Made by a program: the position numbers and the translations under genes. This document shows positions 23,385-46,696 of a stretch of 64,000 nt of DNA, piece after piece. The notes under the pieces are model-generated. The model searched no databases and was not told the DNA's origin. It worked only from the letters and a program-made list of their open reading frames with translations. The stretch is from positions 5,768,001 through 5,832,000 of the forward strand of contig NC_087245.1 in assembly GCF_037042905.1 (NCBI RefSeq). The letters run 5' to 3'. This stretch comes from Lytechinus pictus. Lineage: Eukaryota. Every line of letters begins with the position of its first letter. Position 1 is the first letter of the stretch.

Positions 23385-23562
23385 AGGGACCCGTTTCATA
23401 AAGAGTTGCAACTGTTGTAACTTTGCTATTATGGTAACTACCATGGTAACCTTGATTTTGATTGGCTGCTGAGCCCTGTTGCCATGGTAGTTGCCATAAT
23501 GGCAAAGTTATAACAGTTGTAACTCTTTATGAAATGGCCCCTAATGATTAAATAATTTGAAT
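23385..23562. mobile_element. Palindromic MITE
   Basis: GGGACCCGTTTCATAAAGAGTTGCAACTGTTGTAACTTTGC ... GCAAAGTTATAACAGTTGTAACTCTTTATGAAATGGCCCC; a degenerate relative lies near 55215-55360. Confidence 0.75.
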
Positions 23563-26094
23563 GATTTGACTAGTTCTTCAAAGTGTACCTAGCATTTATA
23601 TAACCAAACCACCTTGCCCTAACTCACACCCACACTTACACACTCTCCCACACACATACAAGCATCCTAACACACAAAATATATACAAATGGCTTAATTA
23701 CAATTCATTTACTCCGCAATTAGGATTTTGCGATCAAATATGTTAGATAATTGTTGTTAGAAGTCAAACATCTTTAACACAACTAAGCGCAAAATAATTC
23801 ATAAATGCAATATGAAAATATGCCATGATATATGATATACATGTATGTGATACCAAGTAACAAAGCGCAGTTGAGTATATGCACATAGTAACTGCGCTAT
23901 ATAATTGGACTTACTATTATTATTATTATGATCTACTGAATCCGTAAAAATTACGTATTGAACAAGTCGGATGAAATATTTGATCACTGGAATCAAATAC
24001 CTCGTACAAAAATAGCGACATGAAATCATCTATGCATCCAGGAGCAAATACAGATTTCTTGGGGTTGGACACAGAGAGAACTTTCTAAGTTACTAGAAAT
24101 TTAACAGCAGGGCTTATCGATCAAAATCTTTTTACAATGCCTTTTAGGAAAAAAAAAGAAAGCTTCTTACTCATGGACATTTTTTTCATTTTCACACCCT
24201 AAATGGGAATACACCTTTGGGGTTGTGATGATAATACTTGAAATTTGTGTTGCACATAAATATTGGTAAAGACTCTTATTTGCTTTACAAATGTCAATAC
24301 ACCAAATTATATTATTTTTAGAATAAGTCATACAAAATAGAGAAAGTAACTTCAATACATAGAAACTACAAAATTAATTTAAAACATATCACTTCCATAC
24401 ATATTTACACGATTCATAACATTGTACTAAATTTGTGTATCACTTTTATAGGCCCCTGGTTTGCCCCCTCTTCTCAATTTACGCCTGAAAGAACAAACAA
24501 AACAAACAGGCCAAACAATATACATATATGCTTTGTTTGATACAAAATACTACATAGGCGTTCATAAAGTTGTTAATGTAACTTACATGTACATTGTTGG
24601 TCTGATTATAGTGTTTCAAATACAATAGCTCCGGGGATAACATTTCATGGCGTAGTGGTGGTGAAGGGATGATACGGGAAGTTTGTAATTTTCAAATTGT
24701 ATTTTATTCGTATATATGATTCTTGGATTAAAACGTTTCGACCTCCAGCTTTTTGATTAAACAATTAGCTGGACTCACATTGGAATAATAACTTGATATA
24801 AATACCTACATAATGGAGGCTTTCGGTGTCACGCCTGCTGCTCTCGCATATCTGGGCCACAAGTACTGACAAAACCCACTCTAGCTTCAAACCCTTTAGT
24901 CACCTTACTTAAAACGTATCACTATATACCAGTCCATAACGTTTTCACAACACCGGGACAGGATTCACCGCAAAAGGAGTTATCTTGAATCAAGGCTAAT
25001 CTTGCACTTTTTAAAACCAAGGATTGTGGTCCAGGATGATCCTTATGCGATACATTATATTTAATTGGGATACTGGCTTTAAAGAAAAAAAATTCTTCCA
25101 AAACAACCTCTATAGGAAGCAGCATAAATACTGCACAGATTGCATAGAATATATTGTTTATATAAATTATTAGTAGATTTCTTTAAAACACGGGCGTGTA
25201 CTGGTAAACGCCCATGACAAATGATTTCGCAAGATCTATACTGATTGAGTCAGAAATGAAAATTACACCTCAATAATCGACAATTTAAAGAAAACTCACG
25301 TCATAAACACAAACCTCAAAAACCTTTTGCAAATATCCTGAAAGAGTATATCTTGTCAGAAACAATTGGCATGGTTATATAGTGGATTTATTGCAAAAAA
25401 ATATATTTGTACAGCTAACATGGTAATTGTTTGATAAGCACTGTTCTCATTTAATGTAATTAAATAAACAGGTATTGTGCAATGATGTTTACTGCTATTC
25501 ATTTACGTTTATGACGTAATGGATATTTTGATTAATCATGTTCATTTCCGCCATGCCTAACTCTGACATGAATCAATTTGTAAATCACCCCAAAAAATAC
25601 GTTCCGAACATCAAATATACCACAAATAAGTGATATTAAACCGTTTGCACGATTTGGGAGGAGTTACTCTTTCATAAAATACAAAACTGCTATCTCATAT
25701 CAAACAATAAATTTATATATATACATATATATGTATGTATGTATATATATGTATATATATATATTAATGAGGCAAAGTGGTAATGCATTGTACTTTGTTC
25801 CAACAGTTTATTTTAAATTCCAAATTTTCGACGTTAAACATACGTCTTCCTCAGGGATACAATAAACTGAATATATATATATATATTCAGTTGATAATTT
25901 TATAACTTCAATATCAGTAAGTCCATAGAATGGATGTTCTATATATAAAGTTTTTGTTTATTTTGAGCAGTCATCTTTTCTTCAATCAATAATTTCATTA
26001 ACATTGGATTAAGTGGATGGGAAAATTAATGTAACACTTTTTGGAATGTACCTATCGCTATCCCACCATAATCTTACCACAGACTCTCTCTCTG

Positions 26095-26288
26095 GTGACA
26101 CGACATTTGTTCCTGCGACAATTGCTTCGGGATTAATATCGTCTGAGATATAGGGTTAGGGTTGCAATAGGGTTTTATCTTAGGTTTATAGGAGAGGGTA
26201 TAGTGTTAAACCCAGGGTTGAAGTTGGTCATTCGATAAGTGTATGGAATTTAGAGCGGAACAATATTGTCGCCGGAGCAAATGTCATT
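26095..26288. repeat. Short interspersed inverted-repeat element with internal TAGGGT motifs
   Basis: GACATTTGTTCCTGCGACAAT ... ATTGTCGCCGGAGCAAATGTC flanking TAGGGTTAGGGTT. Confidence 0.55.
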
Positions 26289-27119
26289 TTAAGCCTGATG
26301 ACTTTTACATGTATTTTATTTATTGTAATATTTTTCACCACTTTGTAGAGAGCTAGAAGGGCGTTATCACTATAGATTATCAATGGTATAGCGACCTCCT
26401 AGTTCTCAGCTGATGACATTTAAGAAAGCAAATCTTATTTGGAGTGACAAACATCAATGAGTTTTGGCTGAAAAAAGTCTACCGGCGTGTGAATGGGTTG
26501 TGAACTTTTGTAGATAAATACGGAAAGAGACTGGGATAGAAACCTCCATCAAATGAACAGCTAAAGAAATATCCAAATGTTATCCATGATCAACCGCCAT
26601 TTCTGTGAAAAAAATGATTGATAAAGGATGCATAATCTCTACTAGTACGCCTTAAACATTTTATAATTTCTCATCCTGAAAGCATGGAAAGTTTTATGTC
26701 TTTGCCCTGTTTGGCAAATGTTTTCTTATTTATCCTTCAAGGAAGGCAAGTCCCTTTGTCATGTTTGCGTTTAAAAATTGAATTTCAAATGACAGAGTTT
26801 TTGCAACCGCAACGCAGAACGCTTTCGGGAACATAGAGAATGTATTGTCAAATGCCCTTCATGACAAAGTCTTTGTCGACGGTTAGTGAATCGAAATAGT
26901 AAAAATAATCTGGACAAACGACATATTTTCAACTTTTCGTCAGCTCTGAAACGTATACTGCTGTTCCGATTAACCAATTTTCGACGAAGACCTCCAAGCT
27001 TATCTTATGATATGACTTGCATTTTCAATTCATTTTCAATGTTTTATTATCAGTTCCTCGTAGCGGTGCGAAAACTCCGTATTTTCTTGAAAACGAAAAA
27101 AAGGTACATTAATGGTACA

Positions 27120-27228
27120 TCAGATAAAGGCCTTCACACATCCCCTCCTCACCCCGTCAGTTACAGCGGTCGCTGTAGTAATGGACTCGAAATTTCGTGA
27201 ATTGTTCATCACATCTGTGCTTAGCATC
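27120..27228 (-). CDS. Probable terminal exon ([35 protein letters not shown])
   Basis: CAG acceptor, phase-2 compatible, TGA at 27120-27122; AATAAA on the minus strand at 27043-27048. Confidence 0.5.
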
Positions 27229-30200
27229 CTGTCCACAAATTTTCTACACCTTTAGTGTGTGTATACATGTATATATATCGGGTTCCTAATCAAAGAACTT
27301 CGATCGAACATACGGTCAGACTAGGACAAAAATATCTTGGTTTCGTCGAATGATCTCTAGAAACCCAGTTTTTTTTTTTCTTTTATCTTCAATTTTCTTG
27401 AAATTATATCCTTTTCCTGATTTTTTTTCTTTACCTTTCCTTATCACAAAAAGGGCGCGTTTCTATCCAAGTCCCGCAGAAAAGCAAGAATATGCCTTTA
27501 AAGTAGTCCCAGTGGGGCCAGTGAAGCGTCAAAGAAAAACATTGAATTACTATTTTTTTTATAAATGGTGATAAAGGTTTCGGTGATATCTTTCAACTTA
27601 CCCCACTTGCGTCTTGTTACGAACATTATCGAGTAAGCTTTGACAAGTCGATAATTGATCTTCACTTGCACAAAAATCGAATATATCACACGTAATGCCT
27701 GGCATTAAGGTATCTTGAATACAATCTGAAAGGCAAGTGAAAACAAATAAATATACAAAAAAACAGGGGGAAATGAAATATCATTAGCTCATAATTGTCG
27801 GTGAAGATGTAAGAATCCGGTTCCATGGCGATTTAGAAGCCTGGCTAGAGTATCTAAGTGCAAGCTGAATATGTCGATCTGAAAAGGGAACCTTTTAAGT
27901 TCTGTTTGACATGTACGGAACTTATTAAGTTGTTATGTTGGTAAAGTGTCTGCCTTTCGAACCAAAGGTCGCGGGTTCAAGTCCTCCCTGGGCGGATGAC
28001 TGAAACCTGCGTGGTGTGTAAACGTCTCTCCACTGTTCCATATAATCATGCAGGCTATGTTACAGTGGGGAAAACACTCCGTCCCTCGGATAGGACGTTA
28101 ATTGAGGCCCCGTGTAGAGGAGAGCCATCATCTTTGCACGTTAAGAACCCACATCACTATTCGTATAAGAGTAAGGGGAAACTCGGGTGTAGTGGTCCAC
28201 CTGCATTCCCCGATCAGTTATATCGGGAGGAGAGACCTGCGGGTCATATTGTTCAGTTCGTTTTTCGCCTCCCAAGCACAGGTGACGCCAAACAAATTAC
28301 TACTACTACAAATGATAATGATTATGATAACGTATTTCACTAAATGAGCAAGATGTGCGGGAAGCTCGATGTATGAGAAAAGTACTCATAAATATCGCCA
28401 CATATAATGACAGAAGCCACTGTTTAGTCACCTTAAACAGAAGATGCCGACAATATAGTTGGCACATGGATATATAGGGGGCTTGCCGTAAAAAGAAATT
28501 GTATTTCATTGACTGTTTAAAAGGACACCAAGACCAAAATACATTTCGCTTAAACTCAACCATTCGAGATGGACATTATTGCTATTATTATAATAATTAT
28601 TAGTACTATTATTTCTATTATTATTATCATCATCATCATTAGTGGTAGTATCATCATCATCCTCATCATCACTTATAGGGGGCCTATGGCCATTACTGTC
28701 ATTAATAACTTACAACAAATTGTATATTGTTATGTAACCAGATCAATATTACTCTGTTAGTGTTAAAATATTTAAGCGTCCACTGCAACACAATTTCACA
28801 ATGTCTAAATAAATAAAAAAATAATAAAAGAAAATGGGGCAGTGAAATTTAATTTTCACATTCTCCAGATATTCGTATATTCGCTGTTGTGACTGTATTA
28901 TGGAAATAGGTGAAAAACAAATAAGAAATCCAGTCGAACGAGTGACTAGCCACACTAAAATATGACTTGAAAAAAAACCCACAGCAATCACAAAACAAAA
29001 TTTTGACTATACCTAGAGTGAACATTCAAATAACTGGGCTGGTAATGCTATACCAACGTAACTGACATCAGACCGATGGGTCTGGAGTCAGTTGGTATGA
29101 CTTTCGCAACCGTTACTTACTTCTTCTCTGATCACAGTACTGCTTCATTTTATTATCCCAACAAAGACCAGCTGCTCCGCAAAAGAACTTGTCCTCGCTG
29201 CAAGCTGTAGCAAATGACAGAATGTGGAAGGATATTTCAGTATCGTAAGTTAAATCAAACCACTGATATATGGCGAGATTTTTTTATTTTTTTTTCATTA
29301 TTTTTCTTTTTTTGAGCATTGCAAGCAACACAAAACTGAAATATATCACACTTTATTGTTGATTGATTAAATGCCGTCAAACTCCATCGAAATCATTATT
29401 ACAGATAGATATTTATCCAACATTTTCTTGTGCAGAAAAAAATGTATACATATTTCAAAACAGACCATCTCTTATTAATGGGGAAGAGGGATTATCATCG
29501 AATGAAATTTCCAGTTCTGATACATTATGTCTACTCCAACATAAACTTGATTTAAATGAAAAAGAGAAAGATAAAACATACCTAATGCTGAAAATTCATC
29601 AAAGTCGGATGTCCAATTAGAAAATTACTACATTAAAATTTTCCTTTATTTTCAGAAATCAGTTATATGCACAACGTAATGAAGTGCAAATGGGATGATG
29701 TCACTCACTTATTGACTAGTTTGGTTGTCATTGTTTTGCACATTCGCCAATAAGGAGACTCTTCATTCCTCCTAAGTCCATGGTTGAACAAAGATAATTC
29801 AACATGTTTATGGAGGCAATTTAACATGTTCAATATTCTATGTCAACGTTGATATCTTTTTACTTTTTGCGTGGCAATACATTTTGAAAATTATGTACCG
29901 AATTGTTTGTTATGAGTAGAAAGTTCAAATATTTCGTATTTCTCATAATAGTGAGTGGCTGACGTCATCGGTTCCTTCATTTACTGAATCAGTGTGCGCA
30001 TATTGTTTGGGAAACTGTTTGTGAAAAGCAAAAATGTCAAAATATCATATTTTTCTAAATTTACAATTGATTTTTTGCTATCTACACAAATTAAATTTTT
30101 GTTGCGGTGGACTTGCACTTTTAAAGAGATAAATGCAGTTAAAATAATTGAAACAATAATACTAATAAGCTCGTTTCTTCGGCTTGTTATTTTAATATTA

Positions 30201-31113
30201 TTTTAAATTCTTACTGCAATTTTGCTCATCTTTTCCGTCATCACAGTCGAATACCTCATCACAAACATAGTGCCCATGTATACATCGGTTGTCACATGCA
30301 AACTGGTGTGATGCACAATCTGAGTGGAAATAATAGAAAACGAATAACAATAATAGTTAAGATGATACTTATTACTAATATTATAATTATAATCACGTAT
30401 ATTACAAGGAAAATACTGACACTTTTATTCTAACTTCCGCCATTTGCGTGATGAAGTTTAGGGTAGTTCCATACCGTTAAATCCACCGGCGCAGTTTGCT
30501 TTTAAAAATACCGTACGAGACTGAACGTAGCTAGTAGTAGTAGAAGCAGCAGCGGCAATAGTAAACAAAGCAATAGTAGAAATAATAATGATGGTGGAGT
30601 TGGTCATTGGTGATGGTGGTGCAACACTAGTATCATATATAAATTCTACAAATCAATAAATGATTTAGATGCAAAGACCATAATGCATGTACTTACCGCA
30701 TCCGTCTTCATCCTCTCCATTCTCACAATCTTTACGACCATCACAAAGCCACGAGTGCTGTATCCTTATTCCTTCTGGACATGCGTAGTGGGTCTCAGGG
30801 TTGTAGTCTAGTAAATGTAAAATATGATTTTTTTTTCACAATCAAAGAAACGATAAGAATGTTTTAAATAGCAAGTAAGCATTGAAGGAACAAAACCATA
30901 TGCTAGTATTAATTAAGTCAGACATTTGAAATATATATATTTTTATTTATATGGGCGATTTTAAGCAAAAGCGGACATTTTCCAAAAAATCGAATCGGCT
31001 CTAATTCAAATCTTGAAAACAATTTTCTATCAAACTTTTTTTTTCTTACGCATCTCTTTATAGGAGTATCCGAAACATACGAAAAAAATTATATACATGG
31101 GACTACAAATATG

Positions 31114-31146
<33 letters not shown>

Positions 31147-31189
31147 ATGTATATACATATATTTATATATATATATAAATAAATATATC

Positions 31190-31220
<31 letters not shown>

Positions 31221-34200
31221 TCACTTATTTCAATTTAAGAGAAAACTATCGTTTGTTTTGTAATTTTCAGTTGGATAATCTGGAGGTCATGATTTTAAAT
31301 CATATTAAAAACTGTAAAAGTGACAGAACCAAGTATTAGAAAAGGCACGTAAAAGTGTAATGCGACTGACCGTGGAATCGCCCATACATTAACAATGTTA
31401 CTTTGTAATAAAGGTGTCCCTGAAACAGCATAACAAATTATCATAACATAATCAAATTATAGAGTTGGCCTAGATCATTTTATCAGACCCTATGCTACCC
31501 CATGCTAAAATGTGGTAGGATTCTCAAATAAATGTTCATGAGTAGAAAGCTCATTTCATGATCTAACTTCTATAAAATTTCATTGGTCACGCTTCGGCGG
31601 TTTTAAATACACACTCTGTTACGTAACAGTGGTGCATTTTAGCCCATTCTAAGTTTTCAGCATTGATGCATTTCTGCATTGTCTATGGCATGTCAACCCC
31701 CACTTTTACATCCAGGATCTGAGCAGGGACATTTTCCTAATCATATCCAGGCTCATCAAAACATAAACAGAATGACAAGAAACATAAAAAAATAAGTTTG
31801 TTTGATGATTGACCAACTTGAAAGAAAATATGAATGATGGATGAGTGAAATAAACTGAAAAGAAGAGGAATCCACAAGTTAATCACCCTTTGCGAAAAGG
31901 AACTTTACCAGAGAAAAATTTGACTTTTTTTTTCTTTTAAAAAGTTGCATTGAATTAACTTGACCTCAGTAGCTCATCAACTATCCGTTCCCGTAGCAAA
32001 TGCGAAAACTCAATAGTGAATGGACAAATCGAAAACTCGATTGGTATTATATTTGTTATTGTTGCAAGTACTCACGACAAATATCGTTGCTCTCGTCTCG
32101 CATATTACTGCAGTCATAAAAGCCGTCACAAACAGCCGTTTCTGATACAAGCTGACCGTCCGAGCAGTTGAAATACGCTATAAGTACGCACACAAATAAA
32201 AATGCCAAACGGATTAAATCAATCATTTTGAATCATACTGGTATTGAACAAGTGACTCTTTGTGATGTCACACTTACCACCACTACAATTTTGTATTAGT
32301 ACTGTTACAATTATTATTATCATCATTATTATTATTATCGTAATCACACTTTCAACACGCCTATGTTCCATTTTACATGAATCGTTGAAGTTTGGGCCGT
32401 ACTTTCGGTATAAAAGTTAGGTGGATACTGGATATTGCCCACTTTCTCAAATCATGTATCATTAAGTAAACAAAAAACTCACTTCTTTACATATTATGAA
32501 TTACTAGTGATGTTACGGTACATCAGTCCCAGTCACTCACAGAATCTGATCCTTTTTATCACAGTCACCTCGATGAGACCCATAAATCTACTTACAACAA
32601 TCCCTTTCGTCGCTGCCATCACCACATGTGTCAATGCTGTCACATCGCAATTGATCCAAGATACAACGCCCGTTATCACACTGAAATTGGCGCTCTGTAC
32701 ATTCTTTATGGGGGGGGGGGTAGAACAGGAGTTAACTCGGCATCAGAAAAAGGAAATATCTTAGCTTAGAATATTCCATCATCTAAATAAGGCTTTCACA
32801 CTTCAATGATATTGATAACTATTGTCATTGATCAAAGAAAAATCGTAATTACCCTTTTTTGTCAAAACAACTGGATAACAAGAAAACATTTCGTAAACTT
32901 CCAAAAGAAAACATATACCACTCTTGCCATGGTTTTATGCTAAACATGTTTACATCATTTTATAAAACGGCTGCCATAGCTGAGGTATCTAAATAACAAG
33001 GGCGACATACCATAACCCTGTGGGAGCAGGTATCGGCGGATGCGATTGCAAGTTTGATATATACGAATTACACCAAGGAATACATAGCTTTGAATCATAG
33101 ACAAAACATCGATATTTATATATTTCATCGCCAGTTTGTGGGGAGACTACAAAATAAAGAATGATGTTTCTTGCGTAAGTATATTTTAACCTGAAACTGC
33201 CTCTACATCAGAAGACTTAAATAATAAGAATAATGGGATGTATGAGATGTGCGCAGTGCTTCTCTATGTAAATCAGCCTGATTATTGGTCTCTCTTCGTC
33301 TTATAAATTCCAACGAAATCGCATTAATCATCTTAATTTACGTAATTACCTTATATACACAGCTAGGGCTTATTAGTTTTAGGAGGTTTTTTGTTAGCCT
33401 TTTGTTGTTGAAAATGCTCAAAAATACTTGTTTTTGTTCTATGACTGAAAACAATTTATAACATTTTATTATTATGCGCTGCATAAATGGTATTTCATTA
33501 TCATTTTTATTAAACTTGACAGACTGGCTTCACGTAATCTTATGGTATATCACATAATACTCAAAGATTCTTTTGACATTCTTACCACATTCTGTTTCAT
33601 CCGACATGTCTAAACAATCCACAAATCCGTCACACATCCATTCCAGTGGAATCGATCCATTTCCATTTTTGCAGTCAAAATCAACTGAGGCAGGTCAAAG
33701 GAAAAATACATTATATTATTTCCTTTTCGTTTTGAAAAAATATTGATTTCATTATCTGTAAATCAGGACAAAAATATGAACCTTTCTAAGAACAACCCTC
33801 CTGATACAGCGTGACGTCACGTAATACTGTTAGACGGGGGAACATGTATTAAACTAACAATGTTGTACTCCGTAGCTTATATAGTTCCCATTTATCATTT
33901 TCACTTTCAGCTCCGGTCTGGGTCTTTGAATATCGGGGAATTCAGAGAAATTAGGGCAAAGTTGGCTCAGTCGGTAAAGCGTTAGCCTCTTGTCGAGGCC
34001 CTGTCGGCTGCTTTCCGAGCGAACATGGCTAAGTAAGGGATATAGCGAAGCAGAGCGCCGCGAGACAGGGCCTCTTGACATCTGAGCCGAATTTCACCGA
34101 CTTTATTTTGTTTTTTATTGTTTTTACCAATATTCCGACCAAGAACTGGTCGGTGAAAATCATCCAATGAGAGCGCGGGCCGCTATGACGTCATATTGAA

Positions 34201-37134
34201 TAATCATGAGTCATCTTGAATGGCGACCCGTGGATTCTTGACGAAGAGTGACGACAAAATATCAGAGAGCATTGAATATGCCTCTAAAATGCTGAATATT
34301 GACCGATTTAAGGATTTGCAAGTCGATGAAATTAAATCTGCACTGAAAAGACGAGAAGTTTTTGTAAATCTACCCACAGGATATGGAAAAAATGTAATCT
34401 TTCATGCGATTCCACTATGCGTCGATTATCGATCTCCGCTGTGCAGTGAGGGAATGCTTGAGTGGCGTTGCTTCCCCTTGACTCGAGTCTGACCAGCGGC
34501 TGACCAGTATCTCCCGGGAAGTTTCGGGGCGGTGATGGGTCTGTTACGGCCAGTACTAGTAGTAGCACTAGTAGTACCACTACTTGTAGCATTTTGCTGG
34601 TTATATCCCCTTTAGTGTCCCACAATCAAATGAATCCCCTGCAGAATAGTGGACTACTATAGTATTCCGAACCCCGGACGAAACAGCTTTGACATTTCAT
34701 TGGTTTACTAGGTGACCGGTAATATCATGACTCGACTCATGTATATTCATTAGGAAGACGTTCCTCATGAATATATAATTCAGCTCAGATGTCAAGAGGC
34801 CCTGGCTCGCGTCAGGCCTAATTCGCTTTGCCAATTAGGAAATCCCTCGCTTCGCTCGGGAAGCAGCCGCCAGGGCCTCGACAAGAGACTAGTAAAGCGT
34901 CTGCAGTAAAGCGTCTGCCTGTCGAACGGGTGGAACAAAGGTCGCTGGTTCGAGTTTATCCCGGACCGATGACTGAAGCCGACGTTGTGTGTAAACGCCT
35001 CTCCCTATTCAATAGATGCAGGATATGTTACAGGGAAAACACTCCGTCCCTCCGATAGGGCGTTGAATAGAGGCCCCGTGTCGAGCAGAATCATAAACCT
35101 TCTCACGTTACGAACTCATTGCACTCACCCCGGTGTAGTGGTCCACCTGCACTCTCACAATCAGTTTTATCGGGAGGAGAGACGTACGGGTCATGGTAAT
35201 TCAGTTCACGTTTCGCCTCCCAGGCACAGGTGACGCCAAACAAATAATAATAATAGTAATAAAACAATGTAACATTTTATTCCAGAATAAAATTCTATCC
35301 CTCTAAAATGTGCAATGTACATGTGTATATACCGTGCGTATAAAAAAACGGGACAGTTTTGAAAAGTCTATCAAAATTCTGTTTCAAATTATGATGTTTA
35401 TATTTTGTTGTTAATAGATGATCTGAAGTCTTATCTTTCAAATGCCATTAAAAATATCAGTTCATGCTTGAGCGAACATGGAACACTTTTGTGAGGGGCT
35501 GTACAAAGGCTTGCGCCAAATAGCAGAAAAGGAGAAATTACTGATCATCAGACTTCTTGCTTATCAGCAAACGACCTTTGACCCCATCATCCTCATGGAT
35601 ACACATGTAGTATTACCCAAGTATGCCAAGTATGAACATGATTATTGCAGAAATAAAGAAATCGGAGCAAGTTGAACAAAAACTTAAAAAAAGGATGGAC
35701 ATGACCACATATCATTTGACCTTCCGACCCCTAGACGACCTTTAACCTCATCATCCTCATGGACAGATATGTAAAATTATCCAATGATAATATTTACCAA
35801 GTATGAACATAATTGATGTAGAAATACAGAAATGAGAGCAAATTGAATACAAACTAGCAAGAAGTCTGATGATCAATATTTTCTAATTTTGTGGCGTTTG
35901 GCGCAAGCCTTTTTTTTAACCCCTCACAAAAACGTCTTGTGTTCGCTCAAGCATCAACGAAACTAATTTAAAAAGAAAAGCATTAGAAAGATAAGACATC
36001 AGAGCATATATTAATATAACAATATATAGACATCATAATTTAAAACAAAATTTTGATAGACTTTTCTAAACTGTCCCGTTTTTTATACGCACTGTATAAT
36101 ACAGCGCGTCCCAAAAAAAATGTCCCCCTGACACAGGATTGAATAAATTCTAAAATGTGGTAGTATTCTCAAATAAATGTTCGTGAGGAGAAAGCTCATT
36201 TTATGATCTAACTTCTATGAAAATTTCATTGGTCGTGCTTCAGCGGTTTTGAATACACACTCTGTTACGCAACAGTGATGCATTTCAGCCCATTCCAAGT
36301 TTGCAGCATTGATGCATATCTGCATTGTCTATGGCATGTTAACCCCCATTTTTACATCCTGGATCTGAGCAGGGACATTTCCCTTATCATACCCAGGCCC
36401 CTCAAATCATAAACTTGGGTATGTTCAGAAGAACAAGAAACAAAAAATAAGCTTGTTTGATGATTGATAAGGGGACTCAGTGCACCAACTTGAAAGAAAA
36501 TGTGAATTATGGATGAGTAAAATAAGCTGAAAAATAAAGGGGAATCCACAAGGTAATTACCCTTAGCGAAAAAAGAACTTTAACAGAGAAAAAAAATGAC
36601 TTTTTGTTTAAAAAAAGTTACATTGAATTAACTTGACCACAGTAGCTTATTTACTAAAAAGTAATACAAACAAAAATGCGGTATTAGGTATGAATTAGGC
36701 ATGAAACAAACATGACCCGTTGTCTTAATCATTGTGCATCTCCCGTTATCAAACATGAAATGAACTGTCAAATATTGTTTTTGCCCTTCTGAACATGCTC
36801 ATGGTTGTGATTTGATGAACCTGGTTTGATCATGGTGATTTCCCTGGTCAGATCAGATAATTCCTTGGTCAGAATGGTCAAAGGGGGTTGATATGCTAGA
36901 AAGTGCAGAACACACAGTAGTGCTGCATGCATGCAAACTTGGAATGGGCTGAAAAGCACCACTGTTACATAACAGACTGTGTATTCAAAACCACTGAAGC
37001 GAGACCAATGAAATTTTTTAATAGAAGTTAGAACAATAGACGAGCTTCCTAACTCCACACATTTCATTGAAAATAATTTTTATTTTTTTGAAGTAATTTA
37101 GCCGCATATAAGAGGGACATTCTTTTGGGTCGCG

Positions 37135-37189
<55 letters not shown>

Positions 37190-40104
37190 GAAGAATTTAG
37201 TTGCAAAAGGGGTTAGGTCCACTTTGGACCATTCAGAGAAAAACAATGCTTTTTATTCTCACTTATTGCAATATTCTTATGCGAAACTGAATTTCCATGA
37301 TACCCTACCATGAGAACATAAAATTGGGTATAAAAGAAATCTACCTGTCTTCATATTTTTAAAGATATTATTTTCCTAAAAGAAATCTATGTGGACCTAA
37401 CCCCTTTTGCAACTAAACTGAAATGGACCTAGCCCCTATTTAAAAAAAAATGTGATTTTTCTTTGCCATTTTAGTTCACTGTTTAATAGGAATTTCAACT
37501 TTTCTTTGGTATCATCTTATAGAGCTACTAAAAATCTATACATTGAGACATAAAAATCAAATTTGATTAAAACAATGGACTTAACCCCTTTTGCAAGTGA
37601 GCTCTTCATATATATAAAATATATATATTGCACATTTTAGGAGAAGTTAGCATTGCATATTTTACTGAGCCTGCTAATCATTATAAACGAATGTAATCTT
37701 TGACATTGCTATCGTCTATAATTTATAAATAATATCTTTGTATCCTTACCCGGTATCCTTATAAATAACCATGGCTTCATAATATTACGATCGTATTTGT
37801 CAGTTGAGAGTAAATTAGTGGTAAGCAATATGTTCTAAATGTAATCGAAAAGTATACATACTGGGTGGTAAAGCAGTCTCGTTGTATATGATGTGCCAGA
37901 AGTCTGAGACGGCAGACACATTTGTGAAATAACTAACTTCGCCGCATTTGGGACCAGATGAAACGAGACCTATTAGGTGCCATGATTCTGATAAAGTATC
38001 TTCACAAACTAATGGACTTCCACTGTCGCCCTGAAGGTAAACAAGGAAAAGCAAAAACAAAAAAAATTTAAAAAAAGTAGAAAAGAATAGTGAGAAAGGG
38101 AAGCAGATGTAGTAATTGCTCCTATGTTCATGACACTGGCGGATCAAGGTGCCCCCCCATTAAATGAACCATGATTACATGTTTTTTTTAGTGGAAAACG
38201 TTATTCCTGACACAGTCCCCCCTTTTTTAACGTCCTGGACCCGCCCCTGATTCATAATGTTGAATTTTTGGTTAGGTTTGCAACTGAATCTGTAAAAGGT
38301 CTCGTAGAGAATGAGACATCTTCTACATTTTGCTTTCGGCAAACTGAGAAACCAAGTTTCATTTCCAAACACCCATATCTTGTACTGTTACTCTGTGGTA
38401 GTTATTATGTTGATACTAAAGGGATAACGTAATTGCGAGCGACTTACGCGAGGAAACCGGCAAAACTTTGAATATTATATAAATTATGTATAATTCAAAT
38501 TTGTTTGGTAGTTTGACACGGCCCTTTGTTGACCTATTGTAAATCAAAAGAGTGTCGAGTCTTCCGATAAACTAACGAACATAATAAAATCGGCCCATCT
38601 TTCAGAAAATTTTGATGCAAATACGGTGTTGAAAATATCCTTAACCAAAATAAATTCTCCTCTTCTGAGAAAATATACATACAACATTATACATCTCTGA
38701 ACCAGGAGGGGTTTTGAAGCTCTTATTATAGCCTGTGCATGTGGATAATTTAATAAGCCACTCTTTGAGTGGAAATTGAGGGCAAACTCTATTCCAAATG
38801 CAGGTTAATTGTTATTCTTCACCATCCATCACAACACACATTCTCCGCACTTGTGCCTTTTTTCTAATATGTTCATGGTTGGACGAACACATTTAAAAAA
38901 ATAAAGCAAGGAATTATAACATAAGATTTCTATGGTTTAAATGCATTTTTATTTATTAACGATTTCTCAATATCTGTTGACTGAAATGTAAAAAATCAGT
39001 GGCGGATCTAGGATTTAAAATGGGGGGGGGGGGGGGAGAGGCTCCAAGATATTGGACGGGGCATTAACATGTACATAAGTATTTTTATTTTATTTTAAAG
39101 TGGGCGCTCGTTTAAACCCATACGACGATACGCCACTGGAACTTGTAACCCTGTAACTGTACACAGTTCTTTGAGTCACTCTTGTGACTCTTAAAAATTG
39201 TCAATTTGATTTGATCTCTGATCGCTCATGCATTAATCATTACACCTCACTTTTCTCACGGAGATTGGTCATGGGTGTTAAAAAAAACCTGCGACATTAT
39301 ACATCTGAAAATTATTCCGTTCAAAAGTGAGAGCATTTGATGAAGGAGGCATTCATTTTGTTGATTAGAGACGACTTTAATAGAAGAAACAGAAAATTCC
39401 CACTCCTTTTCCACTTTTGTGGTGAAGAAGGTGACTTCGATCCTCTACCCTCCACATAAACAAAACAATAAGCCATTTCTTTACATTTTGCAGTACAAAG
39501 CAAACGTGCTGTTGGAATTTAATTAAATCAACAAAAATGGGATTTGGGAAGCATCTATGAAATTGTTTTTACTCATCTATTTTATTATCATTACTGTTAT
39601 ATTATCATCGTTACTATCGTCATCATCATCATCATGAACATCACCATCATCATCATCATCATCATCATGAACATCACCATCATCATCATCATCATCATCA
39701 TGAACATCACCATTTCATTATACCTTACCCGACATGGTACGCTAATGTGTGCCAAGAGTTGTCTATTATCCTCATAACCTGCGCAAAGCCGTTGTGGTGT
39801 TATTTGTAGCTCTTGTTTTCTGCTGATTCTTGAGGCCCACTCAAAGCATTCTTTGGGTTTAATCAGGGGGATCTCAGCATAAACTAATTCAGTATTTTCG
39901 TCAAAAGGAAATTCTGTCAAAGAAAGCAAAATAAAGAATCACTTCAACAAAATAGTCGGTCAGATTCTTCTTTCAGTGAAACAACATCGGGTATTGGGTA
40001 TATGCATTCATTTATTTTCCACAAGATAGTTCCTTATGTTCATAATATTATTAATGAATCCATGCGTGTATATGTCCATATGTGTATAATATGAAGGTGC
40101 ATGT

Positions 40105-40135
<31 letters not shown>

Positions 40136-43100
40136 CATGTCTGCATATCTCGCATCAATGGCATAATCTCCCATAGTAGTTCGAGTGTTGTATTAGAATC
40201 TGATTTAAGACGTCATATTCATCCATCGACATCTGTAATGGGATGCAAGTTCATGTTCGTCTTTGATATTAACGTCACTTGTTACTTTGTAAAATTACAC
40301 TTGTCATTAGTGTCAGTAGTGAGATATGAGTGCATTCATCCCTGGTGCTGATGTCAGGAGGGGGTATTACTTTATTTCATTTGGTAACGATGTCATGAGT
40401 AGAATACAACCCCATGCTATATCTGGTACTGATATTAGGTGCAGCATACAAACTCATTCCGTTTCTGGTACTAATGTCAGCAATGGGATACAACCTCATT
40501 CTGTCTGGTACAGATGTCAGGAGTGGGATAAAACCTCATTCGGTCTCCGGTTCTGATATCAGCAGTGGATACAACCTCATTCAGTATCTGGTAGGCCTAC
40601 TGATGTCATCAGTGGAATACATTCAGTCCATGGTACTGATGTTATTAGTGGGAAACAACCTCATTCAGTATCTGGTACTGATGTCAGCAGTGGGATACAA
40701 CCTCATTCAGCCCATTGTACTGATGTTAGCGGTGAGATACAACCTCATTCAGTTTCTGGTACTGATGTCATCAGTGGAATACAACCCCATTCAGTCCATG
40801 GTACTGATGTCATCAGTGGAATAAAACCTTATTCAGTCTCTAATACTGATGTTATTAGTGGGATACAACCTCATTCAGTATCTGGTACTGATGTTATTAG
40901 TGGAATACAACCTCATTTAGTCTCTGGTACTTATGTTATTAGTGGAATAAAACCTTATTCAGTCTCTAATACTGATGTTATTAGTGGGATACAACCTCAT
41001 TCAGTATCTGGTACTGATGTCATCGGTGGAATACAACCTCATTCAGTCTCTGGTTCTGTTGTCATCGGTGGAATACAACCTTATTCAGTCTCTAATACTG
41101 ATGTTATTAGTGGGATACAACCTCATTCAGTATCTGGTACTGATGTTATTAGTGGGATACAACCTCATTCAGTCTCTGGTACTGATGTTATTAGTGGGAT
41201 ACAACCTCATTCAGTCTCTTATACTGATGTTATTAGTGGGATACAACCTCATTCAGTCTCTTATACTGATGTTATTAGTGGGATACAACCTCATTCAGTC
41301 TCTGGTTCTGTTGTCATCATTGGAATACAACCTCATTCAGTATCTGGTACTGATGTCATCGGTGGAATACAACCTCATTCAGTCTCTGGTTCTGATGTTA
41401 TTAGTGGGATACAACCTCATTCAGTCTCTGGTACTGATGTCAGCAATGGCATACAACCTCATTCCAGCAGAAGCCAAGGGGATAAACATCAACACTCTTG
41501 TATTGAAATCAACATGGGATACGTCTAACTTCATCTTGGATATTGATGTCAGAAGAAAGATAATATCATGTCCTTATTCCAATATTGATGTTAGCAGCGG
41601 GATATGATTCCATTACATTGACAATAGACCGACTTCTGAATTCTGATATTATTTTCATTAAAAAATATGAATGATTATTTGCGAGGTGTGATACCATGCC
41701 GTTTACGATTTACAGAATGACATGGATAGAAACTTCTTTTATTGATAACCTTAGATGATTTTTTGTGATACAAAATAGATATATTGATGTCAAATGTTCT
41801 ATGAAAGTTCATTTCATCAATAATTCGATATAATCTTGTCACCCTGATACATATAACACTTACCTCTTCGAGCGGTAAAGCCCCAACCTGCGACTATGCA
41901 CTTTTTCCCCGGATCATACAAGTCTGAATTTATAAGAGATTCCAAACAAATAGTCCTCACATGATCAGTTATTTCAAACGGCCTGTCAAGCTTTAACAAT
42001 ATCATATCGTAGTTGAATAGCACTGATTCTTTTGAATACCCTGGATGAACAATGAATCTAATAACAGATCGCTCCTGGGTTCCTTCGTCGTAGGTTTCCC
42101 GATGAATCGAACCTGCAACTACCGTGATGTCAGCAGCTTGTGCTCTCCGTGATTTGTCAAAGAGAGTCCTGAAAAAATATGAAAGAATATATACTTTTCA
42201 ACCTTTTTTTACCTCTAACCTTAAAAAAGGGGGACAATATTAGATCGAAATAAATACAAAACAATTAAAAGTGACTAGAAACTGCGTGCAGAGCTAAAGT
42301 TGAGTAAAATGGCAATTTAAATGGCGAGTCTCTCTTATCTAACCTTGATATGAACTTAGCGTATACGATAGTAGGAACTTATCGAAGGATGATGGTGAAT
42401 GCAATGGGATCATTTTACGATTGATTTCCATGAATGGACGTTATTTCAGAAGGAGACTTGCTATTTCTTATACACTCTGATTTCGAGGCACAGTTAGTCT
42501 AAACATTGAGCAGGTCAATGACAAAGTGAAATACAATCTTATGCGAATAACGCAACATATATATCATCCACTTGTTATTTCATAACCTTACTTACACACA
42601 ATGTGCAGCTGTGAATACCCACTGAGGATCAACAATAACACCGCCACACACATATCCGTCGTTTTCCCGGATGAAAACTTGCCACGGCCATTGGCCTATC
42701 TCTGAGGCCCGCCCATGTACCACACGTCTGTGCCTCGTAGTAAAGCCAGGCCGAGTCCCACAATTCAACTGGTTAGGTAGGGTGGTCGAAGGTGGGACGT
42801 GACTGCTGTGATCTGGTGTAGACACTGGAGATGAGGAGGATAAAGATGAAGAGTCTGAGTCTGTTTCGAAACCTGAATGGGATAGTTGCAGAGGAAAATG
42901 GTCAAGATGGCATCATTATTTCACAACATTTCTCTCGCACTAAAATCATTTTCCTTACGCAGTTTTTCTTTAACCCTACCGGGACAAATTTGTTCAAGAG
43001 CATTATTATTGTAAGGAAGGTGACCAAACTATCGAACTTCATCGGACGTCGTGTTTTGTTGTTTAGAGTATACTTAAGATGAAATAGAAAGATGATTTGC

Positions 43101-44069
43101 ATACAAATTACGTACAATGGTTTTTGTTTTGTTTTTGGTTCTTTTTTTATGGGGGGGGGGGTATACAAAAGGAAGGATGCGGGTACCTGAGCCCTGGTAC
43201 GTACTGCAATACCTTAAAAAGGCAGGTATCATATATTCTCGACGTACGTGCCAGTTCATAGCGATTATTATACCACCGTGATTCATGTACATGTATGTGT
43301 TCGACTTGGTCCCGCCAATTAGGAAAAAAAACTGTTGTCATTCATCTTGACATTTAACGCTCTGTTGTGTGTGATCTTTTATCGACATTAAACGACAAAA
43401 ATATCAAATGTGATTTTTTTTTTATAGGGTTTCAACTTTTTCTAACAGGAATACGAATTATTGAGAATTATGTCTAGTTAAGAGATATAAGCTATGTAAG
43501 GAAGCGCTGTTTTTAAGACGTCCTATTTTATGACATACAAAGTGGTGAACCAATTAAACAGTCTGCTGCCTTTCCCAAACTGACACAACCCACGCCACCC
43601 TGGCGGTCGAAATTGTGTATTGGAACGTGGTCTAAAACTACAGGGCGGAGTACAGAATGTATTTTGGATGCCTTTTTAATTGGACATGATACGTCTCTCA
43701 TTGACCCTGGATATTTTGAGGAGACCATTTCTACATTCAATTATCCCCATTTGATATAGAAACGTTATATACCTTACTAAAGATGGATTTGCCTTAATAG
43801 GAATCTGGTTAGAGATTTGACTTACCAGGATGGTAAACACCTGCGATCAAGCCCACAATCAGCAAGACGACAACTACAAAGAAAATGGCGGCCATAACCA
43901 TGTATTTGTTCTTCTTGAACCTGCGTTGCCTGAATACGACAACGTGACGTTTTGCGATGCCATTGACGCCATTGGGAACCACTTGATCATGAACAAGATA
44001 GGCACCGTCGACGGTTTGAGAGTCGACAGTTGAGGATGGTCGGTGGTAGTTAACTGTCAAGTTTATCAT
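27120..44069 (-). CDS. Type II transmembrane S1 serine protease with C-terminal LDLa repeats; complement(join(27120..27228,27602..27725,29121..29204,30215..30319,30697..30807,32076..32177,32596..32703,33586..33684,37862..38030,39729..39913,41864..42168,42596..42872,43826..44069)), about 673 aa
   Basis: [26 protein letters not shown] follows basic RQRRFKKNK. Protease motifs: CG...[58 protein letters not shown]. Phase-1 LDLa exons follow. All junctions are GT-AG and in frame. The last two exons are less certain. Confidence 0.85.
27602..27725 (-). CDS. Cys-containing penultimate exon ([40 protein letters not shown])
   Basis: TTTCAG acceptor, GTAAGT donor, phase 1-2, open frame. Confidence 0.65.
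27937..28312 (+). mobile_element. tRNA-derived SINE (tRNA-Arg-like head; resembles sea urchin SURF-type SINEs)
   Basis: TGGTAAAG A-box remnant, TTTCGAA anticodon-like loop, GGTTCAAGTCC B-box; body shared with the copy at 34892-35260; (TAC)n tail. Confidence 0.75.
29121..29204 (-). CDS. Degenerate LDLa-like module 6, N-terminal part ([27 protein letters not shown])
   Basis: CAG acceptor, GTAAG donor, 84 nt, phase 1-1. Confidence 0.75.
30215..30319 (-). CDS. LDLa module 5 (6-Cys; [34 protein letters not shown])
   Basis: Phase 1-1 exon, canonical LDLa. Confidence 0.9.
30697..30807 (-). CDS. LDLa module 4 (4-Cys; [30 protein letters not shown])
   Basis: Phase 1-1 exon. Confidence 0.88.
31110..31220. 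repeat. Imperfect (TA)n microsatellite
   Basis: Seen directly; other (TA)n tracts at 25712-25763 and 37138-37183. Confidence 0.9.
31506..31975. repeat. Partial copy of the element at 36102-37137
   Basis: Near-collinear with 36150-36650 (TAAAATGTGGTAG...CTTGACC-CAGTAGCT). Confidence 0.8.
32076..32177 (-). CDS. LDLa module 3 (4-Cys; [32 protein letters not shown])
   Basis: Phase 1-1 exon, TAG acceptor, GTGAG donor. Confidence 0.85.
32596..32703 (-). CDS. LDLa module 2 (6-Cys; [35 protein letters not shown])
   Basis: Phase 1-1 exon, canonical LDLa. Confidence 0.9.
33586..33684 (-). CDS. LDLa module 1 (4-Cys; [31 protein letters not shown])
   Basis: Phase 1-1 exon with W-x-CDG-x-x-DC-x-D-x-SDE motif. 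Confidence 0.88.
33955..35260 (+). mobile_element. Second SINE copy, split by the insertion at 33983-34891
   Basis: Head GTTGGCTCAGTCGGTAAAGCGT (33961-33982) resumes at 34892 as GTAAAGCGTCTGC...GGTTCGAGTT, continues to GGTGACGCCAAACAAA and ends in a (TAA)n tail. Confidence 0.75.
33983..34891 (+). mobile_element. Non-autonomous AcademH-like DNA transposon with a RecQ-type helicase fragment (34220..34492)
   Basis: TAG...CTA termini; about 110-bp imperfect TIRs; 9-bp TSD GTAAAGCGT at 33974-33982 and 34892-34900; internal [31 protein letters not shown] resembles RecQ Q-motif/motif I. Confidence 0.8.
35332..36094. mobile_element. TA-flanked foldback MITE (Tc1/mariner-like)
   Basis: TA-CCGTGCGTATAAAAAAACGGGACAGTTT ... 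AAACTGTCCCGTTTTTTATACGCACTG-TA with about 200-bp inverted arms. Confidence 0.8.
36102..37137. mobile_element. TA-flanked foldback MITE (Tc1/mariner-like), a second family
   Basis: TA-CAGCGCGTCCCAAAA...ATGTCCC / GGGACATTCTTTTGGGTCGCGCTG-TA; arm 36150-36350 mirrors 36880-37075; followed by (TA)n. Confidence 0.75.
37190..37607. mobile_element. TIR MITE with ATAT flanks (possibly Sola-like)
   Basis: GAAGAATTTAGTTGCAAAAGGGGTTAGGTCCA / TGGACTTAACCCCTTTTGCAAGTGAGCTCTTC; an internal TIR copy lies near 37393. Confidence 0.65.
37862..38030 (-). CDS. Protease exon 5: catalytic Ser (GDSGSPLVC); no stop, ends at a phase-1 donor
   Basis: CAG acceptor before GGCGACAGTGGA; GTATGT donor at 37861. Confidence 0.88.
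38997..39138. mobile_element. Small hAT-like MITE
   Basis: CAGTGGCGGATC ... GATACGCCACTG ends with an internal G-run. Confidence 0.5.
39600..39715. repeat. (CAT)n microsatellite with a repeated CATGAACATCAC superunit
   Basis: Seen directly, just after the donor of protease exon 4. Confidence 0.85.
39729..39913 (-). CDS. Protease exon 4 (LVYAEIPLI...ECFEW...LCAGY...SVPCR)
   Basis: CAG acceptor, GTAAG donor, 185 nt, phase 1-0. Confidence 0.88.
40330..41465. repeat. 42-bp minisatellite, about 27 copies, in protease intron 3
   Basis: Consensus GTTATTAGTGGGATACAACCTCATTCAGTATCTGGTACTGAT; produces 14-aa periodic ORFs. Confidence 0.92.
41864..42168 (-). CDS. Protease exon 3: catalytic Asp (NYDMILLKL) through AGWG
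   Basis: TTTTTCAG acceptor, GTAAG donor, 305 nt, phase 2-1. Confidence 0.9.
42596..42872 (-). CDS. Protease exon 2: Ser/Pro/Thr stalk, activation site RHRR/VVHG, catalytic His (TAAHC)
   Basis: CAG acceptor, GTAAG donor, 277 nt, phase 1-2. Confidence 0.9.
43826..44069 (-). CDS. Protease exon 1: cytoplasmic tail and signal-anchor TM helix (the exon extends 5' to an acceptor at 44163)
   Basis: AAGATG start; basic cluster followed by about 22 hydrophobic residues; GTAAG donor, phase 1. Confidence 0.8.
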
Positions 44070-45605: not shown

Positions 45606-46518
45606 GTTCTCTTTTCGCATCCTCTTATAGATTGAGTTTCCCGTTTAACACGAAGTAAGAAATAGTGGTGGGAATATACATTTCCCCCTCGAACTGAACT
45701 ACTTCTCTTTCCGTATATTTCATATAGCATTTCATGCAGTAAATCCATAGGGATTACGATCATAAATCAAACGAAGTTATCATTAGATGCATAAAAAAAG
45801 CGATTTACTTGGATTTTTTAACTGTCAGCCGTAAAGACAAAACGATTTATTTCTAAAGACAAATAGTCATCATGTTCGCACAGGACGGAAACCGTACCTG
45901 TAACCAAGGATACGGTTGTAACAAAAGTAAAAAGGATTTCAGGAATAATAATATCAAAAGAATAATACGTTAGACGAATGGATCCTTGAAATATTCTTGC
46001 CTACACTCTTTGTTGAGAAAATGATTGTAGCAAGATATGATTGTTAAACTTTTAAAGCAAACAAGCAAGTAAGGTTAACGGATAATAATTCTTATAGACA
46101 CAAAACATTTGATAGTGGGTAAAGGCAATTATCACTTCTGTCGCAAAAATAGTGCTTATTTTCTCTGACCAAATTCCTTCATTATACAAAATGCAATATG
46201 ATAAGTGATGCAGAAATTACTCTGACCCCAAATTTGATGAAAGATCAAAGCTGCAGTGCTTTGCAAAAGATTGGAATATTTCACCCTGCTCCCACGTCCT
46301 ACTTCCCGCCCTCTATACGTGGTTTCCATTTTCCACTCGGTGCCATAAACCACGGTAAGCCGATTGCTCGAATAGAATATTTGATGATCAAATTTTTGCT
46401 CTATTGACGAATTCGATAACGACAAACTGAATGTGCACTCGCTGTTAATCATCACATTTTGCTCAGTTGCACGAAGACTGGATTTGATAATATCCTTTAA
46501 TAAAACAACTTCGAAATC

Positions 46519-46696
46519 CTGGGGGCCGTTTCATAAAGCTGTTCGTAAGTTAAGAGCGACTTTAAGAACGACTAGTGAACCTTTCTTACGCGCTTAAAAC
46601 CATCGCCAAAGAATATACCATTTATGACAAGAAATGATCACCAGTCGTTCTTAAAGTAGCTCTTAACTTACGAACAGCTTTATGAAACATCCACCA
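46519..46696. mobile_element. Palindromic MITE
   Basis: GTTTCATAAAGCTGTTCGTAAGTTAAGAGCGACTTTAAGAACGACT ... AGTCGTTCTTAAAGTAGCTCTTAACTTACGAACAGCTTTATGAAAC; a fragment lies near 16440-16480. Confidence 0.8.

Follow-up and report, generated by a model that had tools for sequence, protein, structure and literature searches.

A predicted type II membrane serine protease of echinoderms with its LDLa repeats C-terminal to the protease domain

We analyzed a 64,000-nucleotide window from the sea urchin Lytechinus pictus (NCBI RefSeq assembly GCF_037042905.1, contig NC_087245.1, positions 5,768,001 to 5,832,000 of the forward strand; coordinates below count from its first letter), and describe from its minus strand the gene of a serine protease in which a predicted N-terminal membrane anchor is followed closely by an S1A protease domain, and this in turn by an array of five LDLa repeats. 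The exon chain, domain order, intact catalytic triad, single transcript and conservation across a family of echinoderm orthologues form the established part of this account. Beyond it, we propose, at a probability of about 0.6 for the reading as a whole, a convertase-activated, disulfide-tethered type II surface protease of non-trypsin specificity, whose LDLa repeats would act as a C-terminal binding arm.

Strand reading combined with splice-site testing yielded 13 coding exons, running from an ATG at 44069 to a stop at 26592-26590 (Table 1), with all 12 introns of the GT-AG type and consistent exon phases. The 641-residue translation is identical, letter by letter, to RefSeq XP_054748855.2 (L. 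pictus LOC129254382), which bears the label 'uncharacterized protein'. A first-pass annotation of the window, made from the letters alone, had placed the gene at 27120..44069; the start was right, and the 3' end lies at 26590 by both RefSeq and the contigs described below. Behind the limit of 27120 stood a putative acceptor at or near 27249, and another candidate, a Cys-containing last exon at 27214, had also been considered; both were discarded, as the contigs and RefSeq use 26602. The coding part of the last exon is accordingly 26602-26590, and three of the four mapped runs have a contig piece boundary at 26602/26603. The annotation had also read the exon encoding the GDSGS motif (38030-37862) as ending without a stop, and this was borne out by the splice-site test: the exon closes at a phase-1 GT donor (37861), six phase 1-1 exons come next, and read-through would meet an in-frame stop at 37815, 16 codons into intron 5.

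Assembled sequences carry the coupling of the protease to the LDLa exons that the same annotation had proposed. Four sequencing runs, which are not on record as RNA, were mapped as contigs on 25800-40000, with exons 1-3 lying outside this region; since unique intron bins have a depth of 0 in the mapped runs, the contigs are spliced sequences. One X1 contig (record 2, 2581 bases) holds the last exon at its bases 1-397, exon 5 at 1131-1298 and exon 4 at 1299-1486, and the 733 bases separating the last exon from exon 5 are the exact sum of exons 6-12. Likewise, a 1989-base contig of X10 (record 13) continues for 525 bases beyond exon 5, exactly the length of exons 6-10, and in X4 the exon-5 piece stops at 37862 with 30 more bases following. 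Pieces at 39728-39915 (exon 4) and 37862-38029 (exon 5) are found in all three of these runs. As the 733-base gap equals the sum of seven exons, we conclude, by deduction from these lengths, that the main form does not read through at 37861. An account in which the protease and LDLa exons belong to separate transcripts, the former reading through to 37815, could draw on the proximity of that stop to the donor and on the older S. purpuratus models, which are split in two (P0010, P0012). However, in three runs the exon-5 piece of the contig breaks off at 37862 with more sequence to follow, both gaps equal exon sums, the gene models are concordant in nine species, and the old split falls inside the protease, P0010 still having the LDLa exons joined to the one that encodes GDSGS; we hence find this account scarcely credible. 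Further, all 547 residues of the Holothuria orthologue lie in one reading frame in two Logan contigs of 2170 bases. A depth-2 contig of X10 over 29314-30244 keeps intron 10, a form whose protein would run for just five residues past LDLa 5; P0011, one of the older models from S. purpuratus, departs from the exon chain at the same point.

Orthologues with the same domain order occur in nine echinoderm species, including sea urchins, sea stars and one sea cucumber, the members from D. antillarum and A. amurensis having come from cluster look-ups and been aligned rather than domain-scanned individually. Full-length relatives, with one protease and then five LDLa repeats, show 98% identity in L. 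variegatus, 80% in S. purpuratus, 59% in Diadema setosum, 39% in Holothuria leucospilota and 37% in Asterias rubens, and Acanthaster planci displays the same order. The S. purpuratus orthologue is XP_011662030.2. Because this order recurs in orthologues at 37-59% identity, it is not a chance assembly, and the membrane-protease-LDLa layout recognized in the first pass is real and conserved. In a representative library, three proteins among the matches listed aligned to the family profile as a single near-whole stretch, all of them family members; the best 150 matches of that library (at least 278 bits), a list crowded by LRP-type and multi-protease proteins, held no orthologue beyond urchins, sea stars and sea cucumbers, and further searches gave none either. 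A phylogeny of the protease domain with Nudel and type II transmembrane serine protease (TTSP)-type references, which the first-pass annotation had suggested, delivered a family but not its nearest kin: in a quick IQ-TREE analysis (LG+G4, 79 domains) the six family domains form a clade (Shimodaira-Hasegawa-like approximate likelihood ratio test, SH-aLRT, 97) with no resolved sister. The 79 domains were drawn from 354 and comprised the 27-member FastTree neighborhood of the family minus one near-duplicate, LDLa-followed domains and named references. A literature search, with subscription papers and supplements outside its scope, found no paper on the echinoderm family and no mention of any of six identifiers, although a proteome or expression table may list it; thus, as the first pass had suspected, the protein is undescribed in the literature found, its gene models already standing in RefSeq under uninformative names.

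The protease is a complete trypsin-fold domain (Pfam PF00089, E 2.9e-46, residues 133-380), the S1A domain spanning residues 132-386 with the triad H172, D228 and S340 intact and in order. In chymotrypsin numbering, H57, D102 and S195 are invariant in the six aligned sequences, and the motifs around S195 and H57 are present in all nine orthologues. An AlphaFold model built on a 66-sequence alignment (an earlier 6-sequence run, with a predicted local distance difference test score, pLDDT, of 46, was discarded) has a mean pLDDT of 75 and a predicted template modeling score of 0.66, with the protease mostly at 80-97 and the repeats at 75-90; the modeled protease matches thrombin with Z 36 and a root-mean-square deviation of 1.9 A over 258 aligned residues. 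The assignment to S1A, the chymotrypsin fold, therefore holds.

The S1 pocket carries several substitutions. At residue 189, the urchin orthologues have Val and those of sea stars and the sea cucumber Gly, leaving none of the nine with Asp; Asp189 is present in 142 of 186 controls, which are the distinct sequences among 347 non-family pooled protease domains with both motifs locatable by pattern, a non-random set of search hits rich in insect proteases, and as the nine orthologues are kin such counts do not represent independent events. The Trp215 position is occupied by Ser, Tyr or Gly, with Gly216 retained, and the 220-loop has three residues between Cys220 and 226 in the orthologues, as against at least four in all 131 readable controls (six in 125). 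Asp189 is the stated basis of cleavage after Arg or Lys, with exceptions also given (PMC7914634). Taken together, these residues suggest that the protease is probably not trypsin-like in its cutting. Alternatively, Arg/Lys cleavage might be retained through relocation of the S1 acid, with Glu368 in the short loop taking over from Asp189: this residue is invariant in 9/9 orthologues, and a shift of the charge to 226 from 189 has a documented precedent (PMC7914634). Nevertheless, by the YT/FT register residue 226 is Ser, Gly or Asn, with the Glu two places earlier, and the CGE motif is also seen in enzymes that possess Asp189, such as TMPRSS13, making this quite improbable.

The first-pass annotation had recognized a membrane anchor, a stalk of about 40 residues and a complete S1 domain, and all three stand. 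Residues 1-56 form a predicted cytosolic tail with a basic run at its end; they are followed by one hydrophobic helix (residues ~57-76, Kyte-Doolittle 3.3), with a net charge of +6 before it and -3 after it, which predicts a single-pass anchor with the N-terminus inside. The anchor was recovered in six of the seven orthologues tested. The stalk (residues 80-118, 39 residues) is 56% Ser/Thr/Pro and has no Pfam module. Cys119 and, in the protease, Cys248 are invariant in the six aligned sequences, and we infer a disulfide between them linking the pro- and catalytic chains. Immediately before the mature N-terminus, R-X-K/R-R, the furin consensus, is present in all nine orthologues and in none of the 186 control domains, suggesting that the protease is probably activated by furin. 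An enzyme that does not cleave after Arg would not activate itself at Arg131, and the convertase site would provide that cut. This activation site, the loss of Asp189 and the true 3' end go beyond what the first pass had noticed. Between Lytechinus and Diadema, the cytosolic tail itself (43902-44069, minus strand) shows 89% identity, far more than the 58% of the protease; compared with sea stars the tail falls to 20-25%, and between the two sea stars it reaches 58%. Its high identity among urchins suggests a trafficking or binding motif.

After the protease domain come 255 residues. Six LDLa-type exons had been counted in the first pass, and all six are phase-compatible, but Pfam Ldl_recept_a is above its cut-off for five of them; the sixth (29204-29121) keeps four Cys and is devoid of the acidic cluster in 9/9 orthologues. 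Repeats 1, 3 and, in urchins, 4 each have one disulfide pair fewer, the first pair being absent from repeats 1 and 3 throughout the family (9/9 for repeat 1), and this shared loss indicates that the array was inherited as a block. A strict acidic pattern is found in repeats 1, 2 and 4 of all nine orthologues, in repeat 5 of eight, in repeat 3 of three and in repeat 6 of none; by analogy, the arm may bind in a Ca2+-dependent manner. In the tail encoded by exon 12, AlphaFold places helices at 611-615 and 618-637 with a pLDDT of ~50-65; this tail has no Pfam match and a best Atlas score of 0.84 (under 0.9), and a family profile of it run against the pooled proteins gave nothing outside the family over 2.4 bits. 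The terminal GNGG, contributed by exon 13 (26590-26602), closes all four aligned urchin proteins; that its final Gly serves as an amidation signal is speculation.

We advance the following mechanism. The basic segment before the helix would hold the N-terminus in the cytosol. In the secretory route, a furin-like proprotein convertase would cleave R131-V132, such that the enzyme would reach the surface already active, with self-activation unnecessary, and the Cys119-Cys248 bond would tie the catalytic chain and LDLa tail to the membrane stalk. A pocket without Asp189 and Trp215, and with the short 220-loop, would favor a neutral or hydrophobic residue before the cleaved bond, and the number of substrates is probably small. 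Through its five acidic LDLa repeats the protein would bind Ca2+ and engage a partner, be it a substrate, a cofactor or a matrix protein, thereby filling, from the C-terminal side, the role that stem domains play in vertebrate TTSPs. In enzymes of the chymotrypsin type, the end of the C-terminal helix is close to the tether disulfide and remote from the active site; hence, the array may sit where the TTSP stem does and need not be 'distal'. The most likely outcome would be the processing of a zymogen or pericellular protein by a single limited cut.

Several observations weigh against this proposal. The 37862-33684 joint is deduced from exact lengths and one variant at 33647 seen at the depth of the X1 contig. 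In X11, a run of raw RNA reads of which 6% was read, mean depth over the bins of exons 4-10 is 0-0.3, from which the gene appears to be off or low in that run. The Holothuria orthologue (P0014, P0317, P0318) has no cytosolic tail and its N-terminal hydrophobic stretch is weak (1.6); this signal peptide-like start possibly denotes a secreted form, or else an incomplete sequence. Further, specificity predicted from residues 189, 216 and 226 may mislead, as with NSP4 and crab collagenase (PMC7914634), and the Acanthaster orthologue (P0155) has Phe for Gly193. The last of these, along with the replacement of Trp215 and the shortened 220-loop, would also fit a near-inactive or strictly cofactor-dependent protease functioning as a membrane receptor or scaffold that captures a ligand with its LDLa array. 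Such a role might account for the greater conservation between urchins and sea stars of the array (45-47%) relative to the protease (37-38%) and for the 89% conserved urchin cytosolic tail. Yet three classes have preserved the triad and Asp194 as well as the activation site and the Val/Ile N-terminus, which is unexpected for a dead enzyme, and we deem the scaffold unlikely. An active, furin-activated surface protease thus remains our preferred reading. Taken to its furthest extent, it would picture an echinoderm-wide, back-to-front type II protease, activated by furin on export, selecting substrates through its LDLa tail for a non-trypsin pocket, and standing as the trigger of a pericellular cascade (a deuterostome counterpart, bound to the membrane, of ModSP or Nudel), with its display controlled by the strongly conserved cytosolic tail and possibly located at the egg or embryo surface; we offer this fuller picture tentatively, and consider it unlikely in its entirety.

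Table 1. Exons of the protease gene, in window coordinates
Feature	Position	Strand	Content
Exon 1	43826..44069	-	56-residue predicted cytosolic tail and transmembrane helix (helix ~43842-43901)
Exon 2	42596..42872	-	S/T/P stalk; candidate tether Cys119; furin-type RHRR (42735-42724); predicted mature N-terminus Val132; His172 (42603-42601)
Exon 3	41864..42168	-	Protease; catalytic Asp228 (42008-42006); candidate tether partner Cys248
Exon 4	39729..39913	-	Protease; S1-pocket floor residue 189 = Val334 (39740-39738)
Exon 5	37862..38030	-	Catalytic Ser340 (38024-38022); short 220-loop; C-terminal helix; phase-1 donor 37861
Exon 6	33586..33684	-	LDLa 1, four Cys; Pfam PF00057 38.1 bits
Exon 7	32596..32703	-	LDLa 2, six Cys; Pfam 39.9 bits
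Exon 8	32076..32177	-	LDLa 3, four Cys, most divergent; Pfam 24.8 bits (cut-off 24.1)
Exon 9	30697..30807	-	LDLa 4; Pfam 36.6 bits
Exon 10	30215..30319	-	LDLa 5; Pfam 35.9 bits
Exon 11	29121..29204	-	Degenerate LDLa-like half repeat, four invariant Cys, no acidic cluster; Pfam negative
Exon 12	27602..27725	-	Cys-containing, predicted helical tail; Pfam negative
Exon 13	26207..26602	-	Last four codons (protein end GNGG); stop 26592-26590; 3' untranslated region to ~26207

The gene is set among repeats of several kinds. Two of its introns contain copies, 75% alike, of a dispersed repeat (27941-28297 and 34906-35245), which attracts up to ~3000 strand-biased RNA reads of X11; being mostly 90-95% alike, these reads stem from other copies, and the element looks like an expressed short interspersed nuclear element. 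Scans of the window for tRNAs and against Rfam gave no match. Intron 3 houses a 42-base tandem array of 25.9 copies (40382-41464), which yields long open frames on the plus strand. Just upstream of the gene, a dispersed repeat at 44886-45585 matches 1659-2650, and long imperfect palindromes at 15697-16282, 46518-46698 and 23391-23537 resemble miniature inverted-repeat elements. A probable neighboring gene on the plus strand comprises a coiled-coil frame at 10075-10476, with a weak match to CCDC73 (25.9 bits, cut-off 27), and a 753-codon frame at 13077-15335 with no Pfam match.

In vertebrate type II membrane serine proteases the enzyme comes last and cuts after Arg or Lys. The echinoderm family retains both anchor and tether but has the order turned around and seems to have given up trypsin specificity, implying that neither rule is needed for a membrane-tethered S1A protease; moreover, the five-repeat pattern has been maintained over three echinoderm classes. 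Lytechinus pictus is a tractable animal, and knockdown and substrate tests are therefore practical. The interest of the family is tempered by the commonness of domain shuffling among invertebrate S1A proteases and by the existing RefSeq gene models.

Among known systems, TTSPs provide the most immediate comparison. Their hallmarks are an anchor at the N-terminus, domains without catalytic activity and, at the C-terminus, an S1 domain that cleaves at Arg/Lys (PMC13578396). The echinoderm protein shares with hepsin, TMPRSS2, matriptase, enteropeptidase and corin the N-terminal anchor, an S1A zymogen, a disulfide tether (predicted in our case) and LDLa modules, and its best Atlas clusters are those of TMPRSS3/2/13 (0.89-0.90). 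Corin is convertase-activated, as we propose for the echinoderm protease, PCSK6 being its activator and a disulfide keeping it tethered (PMC11756421). In contrast to TTSPs, the echinoderm protease lies 40 residues from the membrane, has every module C-terminal to it and is without Asp189. With two of the defining TTSP traits thus missing, we regard it as TTSP-like in anchoring and activation but do not class it as a TTSP.

Other likenesses are partial. Complement factor I has LDLa modules, an RRKR activation site and two chains on one disulfide (PMC9569754), but is secreted, with its LDLa upstream and an Asp at the pocket floor. The insect ModSP/HP14 proteins, of ~650 residues, likewise combine four or five LDLa with one protease without Asp189, but their LDLa-Sushi-Wonton modules precede a C-terminal protease, they have no type II anchor and they form a separate clade (99). 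The sea urchin cortical granule serine protease CGSP1 is reportedly a secreted, trypsin-like S1A enzyme with a C-terminal protease and LDLa repeats. It has been grouped with acrosins (PMC2689223). L. pictus itself encodes a type II protein with nine LDLa upstream of a protease with Gly189 (P0239, XP_054757656.2) and one with four proteases and LDLa pairs behind two of them (P0156, XP_063951984.1).

LDLa modules after a protease had been noted in the first pass as known from insect Nudel, and there they are indeed seen. Nudel combines a transmembrane region with eight LDLa and a pair of protease domains (PMC4676143); honey bee Nudel has the order 3LDLA-SP-3LDLA-pSP and a trypsin pocket (PMC1761132), and mosquito Nudel has an eggshell role (PMC10576393). 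Hence arises the possibility that the family is a shortened deuterostome relative of Nudel, equivalent to its first protease and the following LDLa, which would remodel the egg coat or embryo matrix. Nudels (including P0241) share the membrane region and LDLa directly after a protease; a bee Nudel is collinear in BLASTP over residues 131-598 at 29% identity; the FastTree analysis of all 354 domains put both in the 27-member group along with ovochymase-like and corin-like domains; and a single clade of the family and Nudel was not rejected by the approximately unbiased test (p 0.18). However, IQ-TREE joined Nudel to corin-like domains (95) and left the family sisterless, Nudel is absent from the top BLAST matches of the family protease domains, and in repeat-by-repeat LDLa profiles it is the best match for none. 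Moreover, the Nudels in the set examined have 1600-2000 residues, upstream LDLa, a second protease-like domain, Asp189 and a normal loop, whereas neither upstream LDLa nor a second protease-like domain occurs in the echinoderm protein or, by tblastn, elsewhere in the window. We judge a shortened Nudel relative that remodels the egg coat or embryo matrix improbable.

The implied restriction of the layout to Nudel was overstated. A protease directly followed by LDLa was found in 25 non-family proteins among 298 pooled, 23 of them over 1200 residues, including crinoid, hemichordate, amphioxus, annelid, nemertean and brachiopod mosaics; none of the 25 has a single protease beside an N-terminal anchor with an empty stem. 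Like the echinoderm family, mosaics such as Antedon XP_071959501.1, Saccoglossus LOC100377031, Glandiceps XP_077990430.1, Lingula XP_013421045.1 and Owenia CAH1772368.1, all uncharacterized gene models, have LDLa arrays after a protease, and several are type II with SEA domains. They differ in their length of 1400-4300 residues, in stems of SEA, Frizzled, SRCR, CUB or EGF domains and, mostly, in a second C-terminal protease, and in the IQ-TREE analysis their protease domains do not group with the family described here. One Lingula mosaic protease (P0159) has Lys at the residue 193 position. The nearest layout is that of Antedon XP_071959501.1, with an anchor, a stem of SEA and Frizzled domains, one protease and terminal LDLa arrays. 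As the order of protease and then LDLa is shared with Nudel and these large mosaics, the architecture of the echinoderm family is best seen as a compact variant of an existing theme and not as a new kind.

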